Positions 33,926 through 54,408 of a stretch of DNA of 64,000 bases are shown piece by piece. Origin of the DNA: a virus; the IMG/VR virus record IMGVR_UViG_3300017731_002846, positions 41,905 through 105,904 of that record. One strand, given 5' to 3'. The position numbers and the translations under genes are program-made. The notes below the pieces were generated by a model. That model did no database searches and had not been told where the DNA came from. It worked only from the letters and a program-made list of their open reading frames with translations. The first letter of the stretch is position 1, and each line of letters starts with the position of its first letter.

Positions 33926-34918
33926 TTAATAGCCTTCGGACTCGCCACAATTTTGCATTTGATCATAAATCCAAGAGTAAGTTTTCTCGAGGCCATCTTC
34001 AAGTGTGATGGATGGCGCCCACCCAAGAACTTCTTTAATCATGTTGTTGTCACTATTGCGACCACGAACCCCTTGGGGGGCATCTAAATTATAATTTCTT
34101 TTTAACTTAATCCCTCCAATTCCTTCAACAATATCAACAAGCTGATTAATTGATACCATGCGATCACTACCAAGGTTTAATGGGCGAGTGTCGCCTTTCG
34201 CCCACATTAACTCCATACCAGTAATGCAATCATCGATGAACATAAAAGAGCGGGTTTGTTCGCCGTCGCCCCAGATCTCGATTTCATGTTTGCCGCTCAT
34301 TTTAGCCTCAATAACCTTGCGGCATATTGCAGCAGGCGCTTTTTCACGACCACCACGCCATGTTCCGAACGGCCCGTAAACATTATGATAACGGCAGGTA
34401 CGAGAGTCGATACCAAAATCTTTTCCGTAATAATGAGTAATAAGCTCGCTGAATAATTTTTCCCAACCATACCCATCATCTGGATTTGCTGGAAACACAT
34501 CAGACTCTTTGAGAGCTTGAGAAGATTGATCTTTAATCTCAGACTGAATAGAAGCTGGATAAACACAAGCTGTAGAACTATAAAGAACTTCCTTTACACC
34601 ATTGTCTCGTGCGGCCATCATCATGTGAGTTTGAATCAAAACATTCTCCATGCAAAGAGCTTGATTGTTTTCAACAAAACCCATGCCGCCCATATTACAG
34701 GCAAGATTGTAGATTCGATCAACCCCTTTACTTAATTTGTAACAGTGACCCTTCTCCTGCAGATTGCAATCAGCATGATTTTCGGCGGCATTAAATGTCT
34801 GATACCACATGTTGGCCGGCTTGATATCTGCCGCAACAACTTCATGGCCTTGAGCTAATAAATCTTTAACTAAATAACCGGCAATAAAACCGCCTGCTCC
34901 TCCAACTAGTATTTTCAT
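33926..34918 (-). CDS. GDP-mannose 3,5-epimerase-like extended SDR
   Basis: GAGGFIA, NLACNMGGMGF, YGWEK, GGREKAPAAICRK, IWGDGEQTRSF, GVRGRNSDN. Confidence 0.92.
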   Translation of the reverse strand: MKILVGGAGGFIAGYLVKDLLAQGHEVVAADIKPANMWYQTFNAAENHADCNLQEKGHCYKLSKGVDRIYNLACNMGGMGFVENNQALCMENVLIQTHMMMAARDNGVKEVLYSSTACVYPASIQSEIKDQSSQALKESDVFPANPDDGYGWEKLFSELITHYYGKDFGIDSRTCRYHNVYGPFGTWRGGREKAPAAICRKVIEAKMSGKHEIEIWGDGEQTRSFMFIDDCITGMELMWAKGDTRPLNLGSDRMVSINQLVDIVEGIGGIKLKRNYNLDAPQGVRGRNSDNNMIKEVLGWAPSITLEDGLEKTYSWIYDQMQNCGESEGY

Positions 34919-35493
34919 TTTTTTTCTAAGATGTATTGATATTTAAGAGTTTGAAAGTTTGATATTTCATCAAAATGATGTTCAAGAAAAGCATCGATAG
35001 CTGGAATAATTCCAAAATCTAATAACCTAATCTGAGCATCATTATCTTGATATGCATTCCCGCATAAATATCCTCCAGGTTTTAATTTATGCCACCAGGT
35101 TTCCAGATCTTGTTGTATGAAAGAAAAAGAGTGATTCGCATCTAGGTATATCCAGTCTAGCGAATTGTCGTCAAAATTATCAAGGGCATCGATGGAGTGT
35201 TTCTGAATAACATCAACCCTAGAGTCAGTAGAAAATCTGTCAATAACACTTCGCTTGATTTCATCCATATCAGACTGAGGGATGGCATGCCATCTTGCAG
35301 GTATATCGATAATGCTAACCCATGGATCTATTAAATGAAGTTCAGACGGCTCCATTTTTAATATAAATTCAGAAAAATCGCCTTTAAAAACACCAATTTC
35401 AGCACACCTGTATCCAGGTTTTATCTTCTCTAACAAAAAGAGTCTCGAATCATCTAATTCGAATTCATAAGGCAGTGGTAATTGCTTATCCAT
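34915..35493 (-). CDS. SAM methyltransferase (Methyltransf_24-like)
   Basis: EIGVFKG, LIDPW, DWIYLDANHS, KPGGYLCG. Confidence 0.88.
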   Translation of the reverse strand: MDKQLPLPYEFELDDSRLFLLEKIKPGYRCAEIGVFKGDFSEFILKMEPSELHLIDPWVSIIDIPARWHAIPQSDMDEIKRSVIDRFSTDSRVDVIQKHSIDALDNFDDNSLDWIYLDANHSFSFIQQDLETWWHKLKPGGYLCGNAYQDNDAQIRLLDFGIIPAIDAFLEHHFDEISNFQTLKYQYILEKK

Positions 35494-35498
35494 GATAT

Positions 35499-52000: not shown

Positions 52001-52844
52001 CGATCTTATCCATCACTTCTGGGTTATCTAAATTGTCGAGTAAAAATTGCTTTCCGTCCTCACCACAAAGGTGACAAAGGTAGAATTTTTTATTGGCATC
52101 TCCTTTTTGAAAACAAGCCTGGTAGTTAGCATTCCATTCCCACTGAAGTGGCTTATGGTAATCTGTAACATCGGTTTTAGCATAAGCATAACCATACATA
52201 TCTTGATCTATAAAGTCTTTGGGCTCGCCGAAAACTTGAAGGACTGGATTATCTATTAAGTTATGATCCTTTAGGAATTGAACTATGTTATATTGGTCAG
52301 GTAAGACTGATACCATTTTTTCTACTATTCTTCTACTCATAATATAGCAGCCAAGATTAAGATTATATTTTGGGATTTTACGGTTTGTTTTTTCATTTAA
52401 CCAATAAACATCTTCATCTTTAGGTATCACTTTAAGGTAATCTTTCATGAAGGTTTCATTTTTAGCCACAACAGCTTCATTGAATCCGTATTGCATCATG
52501 AAATCATCATCTTTGTGAAATTCAAAAATATCAACAGCGTCCTTACTAACAACCATATCTAGATCAAGCAGCGCGAATTTATCATAATCCGTCTTCATGA
52601 ACTCATGAAGAAAAAGAATCTTAACAAAAGTGCTTTTTTGGTAATGAGTGAAATCATATTGATGTATCTCTTGGTACCCAGGAAAATCATTCATGGAAAT
52701 GATTTTTAAATCACATCCGATTTTCTCGGCATACTTTTCAAGCGAACCCAAACAATGGGGAACCCAAGCTACATCTTTATACCCAGGATTAGCAAAATCA
52801 GTATCCTTGGGTAGGTCGTTAATCACATATATTACATTACTCAT
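51993..52844 (-). CDS. GT-A glycosyltransferase (GT8/GT34-like)
   Basis: S.EKYAEKIG.D, LLDLD, N.G, DQD, WN, H.CG. Confidence 0.72.
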   Translation of the reverse strand: MSNVIYVINDLPKDTDFANPGYKDVAWVPHCLGSLEKYAEKIGCDLKIISMNDFPGYQEIHQYDFTHYQKSTFVKILFLHEFMKTDYDKFALLDLDMVVSKDAVDIFEFHKDDDFMMQYGFNEAVVAKNETFMKDYLKVIPKDEDVYWLNEKTNRKIPKYNLNLGCYIMSRRIVEKMVSVLPDQYNIVQFLKDHNLIDNPVLQVFGEPKDFIDQDMYGYAYAKTDVTDYHKPLQWEWNANYQACFQKGDANKKFYLCHLCGEDGKQFLLDNLDNPEVMDKIDV

Positions 52845-53770
52845 AATTTTGTTACCTCCAAATCTTCGTCTAGTAAACCCCAGTTGTCGGGGTTAGGGTT
52901 ATCTATTATCTTATTTCTTATATCAAGAGAGTTTACTTTTCTTTCTCCTTGATGTTGGGCATGTGGCTGTGTTGAGTCATTAGATGCACCTTCATTTCTT
53001 TCATGATATTGGTGGTAAAAGTCTCCATCGACAGCTAAACATAAGTTATATATATCTTCGTGCTGGGCGATTCGATTTAAAAATTCAGTATCCATGCTAT
53101 TCATGTAAACAAGATCTTCGTTGAAACCCTTATGCTCTAAGTAGCAATCTCTGTCCACCATCATAACCCCAACAGCCCCGCCGTAAAAAGGAAAAATTTC
53201 TTCATTAGGCATTAAGCGGCTATAGTGATTGTGCTCGTGGCAAATGTCTACTTTTTGAGACAACTCTTGGTCGTATATGAAATCCCTAAATACAGAATGA
53301 TGGGATTGCTCTTCATTAAGATTCCTGCGACTAGAGAAAGCCGCACGAGGCCAAGGCCAGCCATAATCTTTCACTTCATATTCATGATAGAACCAATCCA
53401 TAAATCTCTGGCCAACTAGTGTATCTTGATCGATACGAGCAAAATGCTTGCCCTCTTGATGCCGGAAGCCAACATTCATTGCATGAACTTCTGAAAACGG
53501 AGAGTCTCCTTGGTGCTTGTCTGCAATATCAGGCGGAACCGTAACTATTTTAAGTAAGCCCTGTGTCTCTGGAGCAAAGCGAGAAGATAGGGATTCTTTA
53601 AGCGAGCCACTTCTGGAGCACCAGTCAACAAGAATCACTTCAGATTCATCGACCACATTGTTTTTGCGAATTATTTCACAAGTATGGTTGACGGTATTAA
53701 GACAACGACCAACGGAATCTCCATTGTAATTATCGTTGCGAGAAACTAAGATATAAGATATTCTTTTCAT
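52841..53770 (-). CDS. GT2-like glycosyltransferase
   Basis: SRNDNY.G, EVILVDW, N.G.R...IDQD, GFNE, YHQ.H. Confidence 0.75.
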   Translation of the reverse strand: MKRISYILVSRNDNYNGDSVGRCLNTVNHTCEIIRKNNVVDESEVILVDWCSRSGSLKESLSSRFAPETQGLLKIVTVPPDIADKHQGDSPFSEVHAMNVGFRHQEGKHFARIDQDTLVGQRFMDWFYHEYEVKDYGWPWPRAAFSSRRNLNEEQSHHSVFRDFIYDQELSQKVDICHEHNHYSRLMPNEEIFPFYGGAVGVMMVDRDCYLEHKGFNEDLVYMNSMDTEFLNRIAQHEDIYNLCLAVDGDFYHQYHERNEGASNDSTQPHAQHQGERKVNSLDIRNKIIDNPNPDNWGLLDEDLEVTKL

Positions 53771-54408
53771 CCTTGAGGAACTAATCGTTTACAATTAAAA
53801 GAAAACACTCTCTTGGAATTAGGGACTGTAACCTGTATACCACCTATAGATTTAAGCATATCAGAGTAAGATGATCCAGGCGTAGATATATGCTTCTCGA
53901 GATGTTTGAGGCAGTGAAAGTTAATACTAGACCTGTACTCCTTTTCAATATTTAAGTCATAAGTATTTGGTACAATATAAAATATTTTATTCATCCAATT
54001 AAATACATCATTTAATTCTAACATTATATCATGAGAATCAGTTACCACAAAAAAGTTAGACTTGCGAGAGTTGATCTGCACTTTATTCATCTGAGCAATA
54101 TAAACATTAAGGTTTTGAACTTTTTCTGATTCAAGTATTACACCCCATGTTTTGTCGGTAATTCGTTTATTTATCCTAATGATTTCTTCAATAGCTGGCT
54201 CTGGCATAGAACTTAAACTATGAATTTCGTCTGAGAATGCATATTCTTTATATTCCATTTTTAATTTTGTTATTTTTTGCTGATCCGTGTAGTATTTTAA
54301 TGATTGTTCGTACAAAAGTTCGCGGTCTAAGAAGTTTATTATTTCTTGACTCTTATCCTGGTACACATCAGAAATAGATTTGATGGATTTTTTAATAAAA
54401 CAAATCAT
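53767..54408 (-). CDS. Degenerate fucosyltransferase-like GT-B protein
   Basis: FFVVTDS and I.TPGSSYS resemble FucT motifs, but the HxRxxD motif is absent. Confidence 0.4.
   Translation of the reverse strand: MICFIKKSIKSISDVYQDKSQEIINFLDRELLYEQSLKYYTDQQKITKLKMEYKEYAFSDEIHSLSSMPEPAIEEIIRINKRITDKTWGVILESEKVQNLNVYIAQMNKVQINSRKSNFFVVTDSHDIMLELNDVFNWMNKIFYIVPNTYDLNIEKEYRSSINFHCLKHLEKHISTPGSSYSDMLKSIGGIQVTVPNSKRVFSFNCKRLVPQG

Follow-up and report, generated by a model that had tools for sequence, protein, structure and literature searches.

What would a phage build with a long run of glycosyltransferase, sulfotransferase and methyltransferase genes, and on which acceptor would the product end up? 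The question is raised by a 64-kb window (the whole stretch of DNA analyzed, to which all coordinates refer unless stated otherwise), which covers bases 41905-105904, the 3' end, of a 105,904-bp linear IMG/VR virus record (IMGVR_UViG_3300017731_002846). Twenty-eight minus-strand open reading frames (ORFs) at 33926-54444 form the gene island in question. The data suggest, with a probability of about one half, that the island encodes a pathway by which the phage makes, in the cytoplasm, a sulfated glycan that varies between strains, with virion proteins as the most likely acceptor. Judged from sequence, these genes would suit a glycan that is sulfated and methylated and contains fucose or L-galactose. 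With transferases from so mixed a range of families, a branched hetero-oligosaccharide would be expected more than a fucan polymer. The record was estimated by CheckV to be 68% complete and was collinear over its full length with a relative of 213,830 bp (G001; 100% complete by CheckV); it therefore represents about half of the genome of a jumbo phage.

Most island ORFs overlap their neighbor by 1-17 bases, and the island is flanked by DnaJ-like and ribonucleotide reductase (RNR) genes on one side and by the gene for GDP-mannose 3,5-epimerase (GME) on the other, next to replication genes. Pfam support here means a score at or above the curated gathering score unless stated otherwise (Sulfotransfer_2, 22; Galactosyl_T, 23; NodZ, PF05830, 28.3; GT2 for the ORF at 46524, 23.3 bits). 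With this definition, four Sulfotransfer_2 proteins (one borderline), two Methyltransf_24 proteins, one GT17, two GT77, one GT2/GT7C, two NodZ and one borderline GT31 protein were supported (Table 1), and about 13 ORFs were glycosyltransferase-like when weaker evidence was counted. Eight island ORFs had no match in PHROGs. A signal- or transmembrane (TM)-like hydrophobic segment was found in none of the island proteins, as an earlier note on this DNA, made from the letters alone, had stated of signal peptides. That note had also listed four family-2 sulfotransferases and two methyltransferases (34915 and 36083), all of which were recovered, with the sulfotransferase at 40153 borderline. Its count of about 16 glycosyltransferase-like ORFs came down to about 13, still a large set. 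Two of its three NodZ- or fucosyltransferase-like proteins (42741 and 48580) were recognized by Pfam and the third (37332) by hhalign; GT17 and both GT77 assignments stood, GT31 became borderline, and the GT92-like ORF scored below the cut-off. The supposed Stf0-like protein at 50524 resembled sulfotransferases weakly, by fold, and had no match in a PDB sequence search, while the short sulfotransferase-like reading of 42218 found no support.

Table 1. Island genes and further genes of the window discussed in the text, with the evidence for each assignment (aa, amino acids; pLDDT, predicted local distance difference test score; dN/dS, ratio of nonsynonymous to synonymous substitution rates)
Position	Strand	Assignment	Evidence or remark
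3150..3956	+	Adenosine 5'-phosphosulfate (APS)-kinase-like N-domain fused to a nicotinamide mononucleotide adenylyltransferase (NMNAT)-like HIGH nucleotidyltransferase domain	Pfam APS_kinase 50.2 bits, positions 5-91
24339..25646	-	DUF1501 (sulfatase-like superfamily), host-derived, twin-arginine signal	Pfam 357 bits; SRREF signal motif
31734..33311	-	Virion structural protein, candidate acceptor	phrog_10356, E 2e-15; Flg_new_2 domain; directly downstream of island
33926..34918	-	GME	Pfam Epimerase; conserved anchor at island end
34915..35493	-	SAM-dependent methyltransferase (Methyltransf_24)	Pfam 55 bits; 45% identical paralogue of 36083
35499..36086	-	Carbohydrate sulfotransferase (Sulfotransfer_2), predicted	Pfam 54.5 bits; PKxAG(T/S) and RNPxDR..S motifs
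36083..36625	-	O-methyltransferase (Methyltransf_24/TylF-like)	Pfam 65.7 bits, TylF 24.1 bits
36628..37332	-	Conserved island protein	No Pfam or PHROG match; kept in relatives, dN/dS 0.07
37332..38099	-	Third fucosyltransferase-like protein (NodZ/GT11-like, divergent)	hhalign 78.7%, E 1.7e-5 to 48580 family; HFRGTD motif
38096..38746	-	GT31-like galactosyltransferase, borderline	Pfam Galactosyl_T 23.0 bits (cut-off 23); DDD motif
38743..39372	-	GT77-type nucleotide-diphospho-sugar transferase	Pfam Nucleotid_trans 70.8 bits; variable, missing from some relatives
39365..40162	-	GT17-like glycosyltransferase	Pfam 96.9 bits
40153..40767	-	Sulfotransfer_2, divergent, variable gene	Pfam 22.1 bits (cut-off 22); invariant Lys/Arg/Ser columns kept in paralogue alignment
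40760..41569	-	GT2/beta4Gal-T-like (Glyco_transf_7C) transferase	Pfam 85.2 and 45.7 bits
41553..42215	-	Probable GT-A glycosyltransferase	Foldseek top GtrB, SpsA, BoGT6a, E 1e-4 (model pLDDT 51); invariant LEDDWD motif
42218..42739	-	Variable gene	No family match; in 2 of 8 relatives
42741..43604	-	NodZ-like fucosyltransferase, variable	Pfam NodZ 46.7 bits, N-terminal part only; HFRYGD motif
43591..44340	-	Weak GT77/GT8-like transferase	Pfam 16.8 bits, below cut-off; LDCD motif
44333..46057	-	HATPase_c_3 phage ATP-binding protein, probably no glycan enzyme	Pfam; split by in-frame TAA at 45227-45229
46063..46536	-	Conserved small island protein	No family match; dN/dS 0.07
46524..47216	-	Weak GT2-like transferase, variable	Pfam 20.6 bits (cut-off 23.3); TDSD motif
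47204..48052	-	GT77-type transferase	Pfam 58.7 bits
47940..48644	-	Sulfotransfer_2	Pfam 68.3 bits; motifs present; Met23 probably true start
48580..49467	-	NodZ-like fucosyltransferase	Pfam 56 bits, part of profile covered
49468..49639	-	GT32-like gene remnant (presumed), N-terminal motif only	Read from gap sequence
49640..50527	-	Weak GT92/GT2_4-like transferase	Pfam 25.7 and 27.2 bits, no single stretch significant; IDCDEF motif
50524..51324	-	Possible sulfotransferase-fold protein, weak	Foldseek sulfotransferases E 0.02-0.2 (model pLDDT 57); P-loop-like GQERAGTTS at N-terminus
51314..52000	-	Sulfotransfer_2	Pfam 60.5 bits; motifs present
51993..52844	-	LLDLD motif, typical of GT8-like transferases	Motif only; no family match
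52841..53770	-	GT2-like transferase of phage family	Nearest ESM Atlas clusters viral GT2 (score 0.98, 82% with PF00535) and GT7C
53767..54444	-	First island gene	No family match
61184..62038	-	NDP-sugar dehydrogenase-family protein, 284 aa, no C-terminal domain	Pfam, NCBIfam
62014..62922	-	UDP-sugar 4-epimerase/UDP-GlcA decarboxylase-like short-chain dehydrogenase/reductase (SDR)	Best PDB matches epimerases and UXS1
62932..63876	-	GDP-L-fucose synthase (Fcl)	NCBIfam Fcl 440 bits

All four island sulfotransferases keep the PKxAG(T/S) and RNPxDR..S motifs, and the Lys, Arg and Ser were invariant when the four paralogues were aligned with two Opitutales homologues. We take the PKxxG(T/S) loop to bind the 5'-phosphosulfate and RxPxxR..S the 3'-phosphate of 3'-phosphoadenosine 5'-phosphosulfate (PAPS). 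The enzymes are predicted to be PAPS-type and to act on carbohydrate. The ORF at 40153 scored 223.7 bits against a home-made Sulfotransfer_2 hidden Markov model, a score that is not independent, as this protein was one of the six sequences used to build the model. The NodZ-like ORFs contain the H-x-R-like motifs HFRYGD, HARTSNGE and HFRGTD, which presumably match the GDP-binding motif of NodZ and FUT8. A reduced hhalign comparison linked only the ORF at 37332 to the NodZ-like family, and this ORF also gave sub-threshold C-terminal matches to GT11 and NodZ in Pfam. For the NodZ-like protein at 48580, just 24 relatives, all metagenomic, were found among 5.8e9 proteins, with no match in 50,697 isolate phage records. 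The short stretch adjoining it (49468-49639) is taken, by its motif, to be a GT32-like remnant. The reading frames at 45227 and 44333 probably do not encode a glycan enzyme: they belong to a common phage HATPase_c_3 gene, which all relatives, one of them 93% identical, carry unbroken as one ORF of about 576 aa, and whose product falls into a viral family of 395 members in the ESM Atlas. The TAA within it could be a nonsense mutation, an assembly error or a read-through site.

Genes for the donors were located inside and beyond the window. The GME protein scored 322-325 bits over residues 1-322 against plant GME structures, versus 95 for the next hit, which belonged to another SDR family, and the Cys, Tyr-x3-Lys and second Lys that we take to be catalytic were conserved in the alignment. 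By this score gap and these residues, the protein that the earlier note had called GME-like is a genuine GME, predicted to supply GDP-L-galactose or GDP-L-gulose. The same note had placed both gmd and fcl in the window. The fcl gene was confirmed; the SDR at 62014-62922 was rejected as gmd (72 bits with the gmd model against a cut-off of 415), and gmd itself (about 320 bits) was seen in relatives, adjoining fcl in all five checked, a position that in this record lies just past the contig end. The proposed ugd gene does encode a protein of the dehydrogenase family, in a short form that lacks the C-terminal domain and has equal length and 83% identity in the complete G001.

For sulfate activation, the APS-kinase-like N-domain of the fusion protein at 3150-3956 had APS kinases as all its top PDB matches and shared the LGF(T/S)..DR motif with them, at scores below the NCBIfam cut-offs; it is a plausible candidate for PAPS supply, in agreement with the earlier note. 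No ATP sulfurylase of the Sat or CysD type was found in the phage or its lineage, and for this reason a minimal sulfate adenylyltransferase could reside in the HIGH domain; alternatively, this domain could be an NMN adenylyltransferase for nicotinamide adenine dinucleotide salvage. Four of six host candidates have an APS kinase of their own. The fusion gene and the FdxA-type ferredoxin gene that follows it (3150-4258) are the sole plus-strand genes of the window.

A second sulfation and glycan island was found on the minus strand just upstream of the window (contig 22766-38929), and also in G001 at 177.9-186.2 kb. With a profile made from the window sulfotransferases, seven more Sulfotransfer_2 genes were detected at contig 27-37 kb, confirmed by Pfam and arranged in tandem or near-tandem, which brings the contig to 11 sulfotransferases (four in the window plus seven) and the two islands to 28 and about 17 ORFs, with more than 20 transferases. 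Fringe/GT31, GT7C, GT10 and CTP_transf_like proteins are also encoded there, together with a 986-aa DUF285 repeat protein, an inorganic pyrophosphatase and a CysQ-type phosphatase of 3'-phosphoadenosine 5'-phosphate (PAP), which scored 201 bits to Bacteroides CysQ versus 78 for inositol monophosphatases. The two phosphatases would be expected to pull PAPS synthesis forward and to clear inhibitory PAP.

The island proved to be a recurring and highly variable feature of a phage lineage. The GT17 gene was present in eight IMG/VR contigs (76-95% identity), with the island syntenic, and GME in 16 (83-95% identity); these two queries found relatives in IMG/VR, whereas a tail-sheath query found none. 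Gene content beside the conserved GME differed strongly between genomes, and five further relatives carried 4-10 Sulfotransfer_2 genes each. Two complete relatives have islands of about 30 kb and 38-39 ORFs, and a Pfam scan of 75 ORFs from the pair identified 12 Sulfotransfer_2 proteins, four methyltransferases, a UDP-galactopyranose mutase (GLF), one sulfatase and proteins of the GT25, GT90, GT61, GT47, GT77, NodZ, GT11, GT7C, RXYLT1 and Caps_synth families. The mutase would add galactofuranose to the repertoire. Across the island loci of relatives G093 and G095, one gene, the sulfatase (Pfam, 4.2e-50), stands among the 12 sulfotransferases. Orthologue comparisons, which included ORFs without a family match, gave dN/dS values of 0.02-0.24 with dS saturated; the low ratios indicate working genes under purifying selection. 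Orthologues of the GT17 protein within the lineage were 70-91% identical and the nearest cellular homologues about 34%, and neither the NodZ-like nor the GT17-like proteins had close cellular relatives. A more distant viral contig (IMGVR_UViG_3300009103_002207; guanine-plus-cytosine (GC) content 0.40) carries a GME of 65% identity, relatives of the ORFs at 42741, 51993, 52841 and 53767, and one Sulfotransfer_2-like ORF, so that a second phage lineage may possess comparable kits.

The host was approached through the DUF1501 gene, which shares 84-95% amino acid identity, and up to 84% DNA identity, with genes of marine Opitutales metagenome-assembled genomes (MAGs) and a single-cell genome; one of the matching records is named Candidatus Chordibacter forsetii. 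The homology ends at the gene borders, the host flanks having 42-48% GC (with one exception of 51%, L026) versus 36% in the phage, and the local GC at the gene is 0.41 versus 0.36. As the DUF1501 of the close relative G001 is just 66% identical to the window copy, repeated replacement by host alleles is suggested. The window also encodes a transfer-messenger RNA (tmRNA) on the minus strand at 4489-4852 (Rfam RF00023, 114.9 bits, full length), which was missed by ARAGORN. Of the host markers proposed in the earlier note, DUF1501 pointed to Opitutales, and the tmRNA had no nucleotide match in the five host-candidate MAGs. Marine Opitutales (Verrucomicrobiota) are the probable hosts, a link drawn from one recently exchanged gene.

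Five host-candidate genomes (2.1-2.3 Mb) contained 40-56 sulfatase genes each and no GH29 or GH95 fucosidase. By gene content the host would be a consumer of sulfated glycans; the fucose-rich part of the diet that the earlier note had assigned to it was unsupported. Sulfotransfer_2 was not found in these five genomes, though 18 of 81 sampled Opitutales genomes carry the family, and a GME orthologue was likewise missing from the host candidates; the glycan chemistry of the phage was therefore not borrowed from the host. Together with the distance of the nearest cellular GT17, these absences led us to reject the island as a copy of host genes. The window probably derives from a jumbo tailed phage of this group. 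Its genes include a tail-sheath-like protein (phrog_15433), fibre-like proteins and an S74 fibre chaperone for tail and adsorption, a DnaE-type polymerase, DnaB, a primase and a RecA-like protein for replication, and further a class I RNR, a ClpB-like ATPase and a DNA methyltransferase. A tyrosine integrase was found in none of three complete relatives, and the phage is therefore presumably virulent; temperate seroconversion was ruled out on the same ground.

Where, then, would the glycan go? The count of hydrophobic segments did not exceed four for any protein of the contig or of the complete 213.8-kb G001, the sole ORF with four TM segments being a coiled-coil protein. A flippase, a polymerase, a WecA- or WbaP-type primer, an ABC permease and an oligosaccharyltransferase are therefore all missing, which extends to a complete relative the earlier remark that no Wzx, Wzy or ABC exporter is visible. 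The doubt, raised at the same time, that the contig might be cellular with export genes nearby was removed by the viral nature of the record and the absence of multi-TM proteins. The acceptor must be accessible from the cytoplasm. During infection, a branched hetero-oligosaccharide containing deoxyhexose would be assembled stepwise in the cytoplasm, then O-sulfated and O-methylated, and the chain would be joined before lysis to an acceptor in the cytoplasm, with virion proteins the likeliest, giving the particle a strain-specific anionic coat. Such a coat might, speculatively, protect the particle from the many enzymes that the host secretes, alter its stickiness or play a part in adsorption. 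Virion proteins are favored because of the analogy with chloroviruses, Megavirinae and mycobacteriophages, because hypervariability fits an exposed structure, and because a Ser/Thr-rich virion protein lies beside the island. This protein (31734-33311) has 23% Ser plus Thr, the highest among the large contig proteins, and is not at the same place in G001.

Several observations weigh against virion decoration. No acceptor was identified, no initiating protein glycosyltransferase of known type was recognized, and none of the virion proteins shows a conspicuous Ser/Thr-rich tract. The island lies between replication and nucleotide-metabolism genes, outside the structural module. Nine of its ORFs have no assignment or a weak one, and the two AlphaFold models (41553 and 50524) were of low confidence with shallow alignments. 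Furthermore, undecaprenyl-pyrophosphate (Und-PP)-linked O-antigen and capsule synthesis normally uses soluble transferases too, so enzymes without TM segments are equally compatible with a host carrier and host export. Hypervariable glycosyltransferase-rich islands of marine myophages, in pelagimyophages and cyanomyophages, have been published as a means of host surface modification (PMC7029224). These last two points speak for remodeling of the host envelope, in which the enzymes would act at the inner membrane face on Und-PP- or lipid-linked host intermediates exported by host flippases, for instance to block superinfection or to trap competitors. The GT25 and Caps_synth proteins in the relatives' islands are of lipopolysaccharide or capsule type, and among the phage's proteins at least DUF1501, host-like and equipped with a Tat signal, is exported to the periplasm. 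However, the priming transferase, flippase and polymerase are all missing in complete genomes, and lysogenic conversion is excluded by the lack of an integrase. As the host candidates have neither Sulfotransfer_2 nor GME, the glycan would be no derivative of any host glycan known, and the flippases of the host would need to tolerate a substrate that is foreign and highly charged. The investment (more than 30 kb and 11 sulfotransferases) would also be very large for a transient lytic infection. We consider envelope remodeling the main rival reading, though an unlikely one.

The earlier note had suggested a fucoidan-like virion coat that could act as a shield or as bait, the bait mimicking the sulfated, fucose-rich food of the host and being captured by its glycan-binding and uptake proteins. 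The host candidates are indeed specialists on sulfated glycans by their sulfatases, the phage has the predicted capacity for GDP-fucose and PAPS-dependent sulfate esters, and island hypervariability could follow variable host glycan-uptake loci. The bait idea did not hold up well against the missing GH29 and GH95, a transferase mix that suggests a branched hetero-oligosaccharide and not a fucan, and the presence of ordinary fibre and S74-chaperone genes that serve adsorption; bait is accordingly judged improbable. Still less probable is a free product, that is, a soluble sulfated oligosaccharide or glycolipid-like molecule resembling a Nod factor that is freed at lysis or acts inside the cell. 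The same chemistries decorate rhizobial Nod factors and no acceptor protein was identified, but NodC-, NodB- or NodA-type backbone enzymes and an exporter are absent, and strain hypervariability fits an arms-race surface structure better than a signal molecule. Glycans built on modified bases of phage DNA have precedents in phage transferases that add mono- to trisaccharides to 5-hydroxymethylcytosine (bioRxiv 10.1101/2023.12.21.572611) and in the Ralstonia phage RSL1, where a sulfotransferase, an APS kinase and three transferases lie beside a thymidylate-synthase-family gene, and a DNA methyltransferase is encoded here as well. However, a set of more than 20 transferases and 11 sulfotransferases is far beyond any known DNA glycan, and DNA hypermodification is highly implausible here. 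The usual entry points for DNA glycosylation were unmatched: neither the ThyA family (PF00303) nor Tet/JBP (PF12851) was found in four records including the complete one, the absence of PF12851 being weak since its search was negative in control genomes as well. Decoration of virion proteins thus remains our preferred reading. Its fullest version, in which the virions of jumbo phages of marine Opitutales would bear as a coat an L-fucose/L-galactose glycan that differs from strain to strain, is rich in sulfate and methyl groups, and is made entirely by the phage with its own PAPS cycle in an arms race with a host rich in surface sulfatases and glycan-binding proteins, is possible and is put forward tentatively.

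How does the island compare with known systems? Freeman and colleagues reportedly described in 2023 that the mycobacteriophages Che8, Corndog and Myrna glycosylate their virions. Phage transferases, some with an O-methyltransferase, are reported to decorate capsid and tail-tube proteins in the cytoplasm there, as is predicted here; the mycobacteriophage cassettes consist of 2-4 genes beside structural genes and are not known to include sulfotransferase or donor genes, whereas the islands described here comprise 28 and about 17 ORFs away from the head genes. Rhizobial Nod factors are decorated by NodZ, NoeE/NodH, NoeI/NodS and NodPQ through cytoplasmic fucosylation, PAPS-dependent sulfation and O-methylation, backed by a PAPS supply of their own. 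So far as we are aware, that is the only well-studied bacterial pathway that combines these four features. The phage island differs from it in lacking enzymes for a chitin-oligomer backbone, in having many more transferase families and in using another sulfotransferase family.

Autonomous virus-encoded glycosylation is documented for the capsid N-glycans of chlorovirus PBCV-1 and the fibril clusters of Megavirinae (PMC9614988, PMC5408694, PMC10117803); soluble virus-encoded transferases glycosylate chlorovirus capsids, and a cluster of Moumouvirus australiensis contains sulfate-metabolism genes (PMC9614988). The island shares with these giant viruses soluble transferases without signal peptides, a GDP-fucose pathway, UDP-Glc dehydrogenase-type genes, sugar O-methyltransferases and clade-specific clusters, as well as sulfation, which is predicted in one giant-virus cluster. 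Unlike them, it belongs to a tailed phage of a bacterium and comes with far more sulfotransferases (11), a PAP phosphatase, a pyrophosphatase and GME. The host recognition cluster known from T4-like pelagimyophages and cyanomyophages (PMC7029224) is similar in its large, non-syntenic, hypervariable and glycosyltransferase-rich islands, but it lies inside the structural module between VrlC and gp14 with tail fibres, and the polymerase of the present phage is DnaE-type, not T4-type; sulfation goes unmentioned in the pelagimyophage paper on that cluster (PMC7029224). Synechococcus phage ACG-2014f has a 9-kb cluster of epimerases, three transferases, a methyltransferase and one sulfotransferase-like gene beside a tail fibre. 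ORF230-238 of the Ralstonia jumbo phage phiRSL1 encode an APS kinase, three transferases and a Sulfotransfer_2-like protein (25% identity to 47940); there is only one sulfotransferase in that phage, and the adjoining thymidylate-synthase-family gene hints at DNA modification. In our literature search, no paper turned up on the making of sulfated glycans by a phage pathway. The system is of a known kind, virus-encoded glycosylation, within which it is set apart by the extent of sulfation, by having PAPS-cycle genes and GME, and by its connection with a host rich in sulfatases.

If the virion coat is real, it would be the first sulfated glycoconjugate known from a bacteriophage; so far, virus-made glycans are well documented in giant viruses and in a few mycobacteriophages. 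At least 16 related contigs, drawn from different metagenomes, show the pattern, and the probable hosts live by desulfating and digesting sulfated algal polysaccharides. A glycan on the particle would change models of phage-host recognition, virion stability and virus stickiness in bloom-associated marine systems, and phage lysis would add unusual sulfated, methylated sugars to dissolved organic matter. The island is also a compact source of soluble, bacterial-expression-friendly relatives of eukaryotic Golgi-type GT17, GT31, GT47, GT61, GT77, GT90 and GT92 enzymes and of carbohydrate sulfotransferases.

Some further features of the genome were recorded. A GTGTA motif occurs 5' of RNR, fibre and island-adjacent genes alike and is no marker of a late class. 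A 387-aa protein with three N-terminal TM segments, a long coiled-coil middle and one C-terminal TM segment (22869-24032, minus strand) adjoins DUF1501; it had no family match and is 54% identical in G001. A subtilisin-family S8 protease with a Pro/Glu-rich repeat tail (57271-58584, minus strand; 192 bits) is encoded between NUDIX and RNR genes. Two UvdE-family UV-endonuclease genes are present on the contig, one in the window at 4889-6013 (minus strand) and the other at contig 13022-14041. In the half of the genome that is absent from the contig, G001 contains a single ORF of 4,460 aa (59987-73369), which may encode a giant virion or fibre protein.

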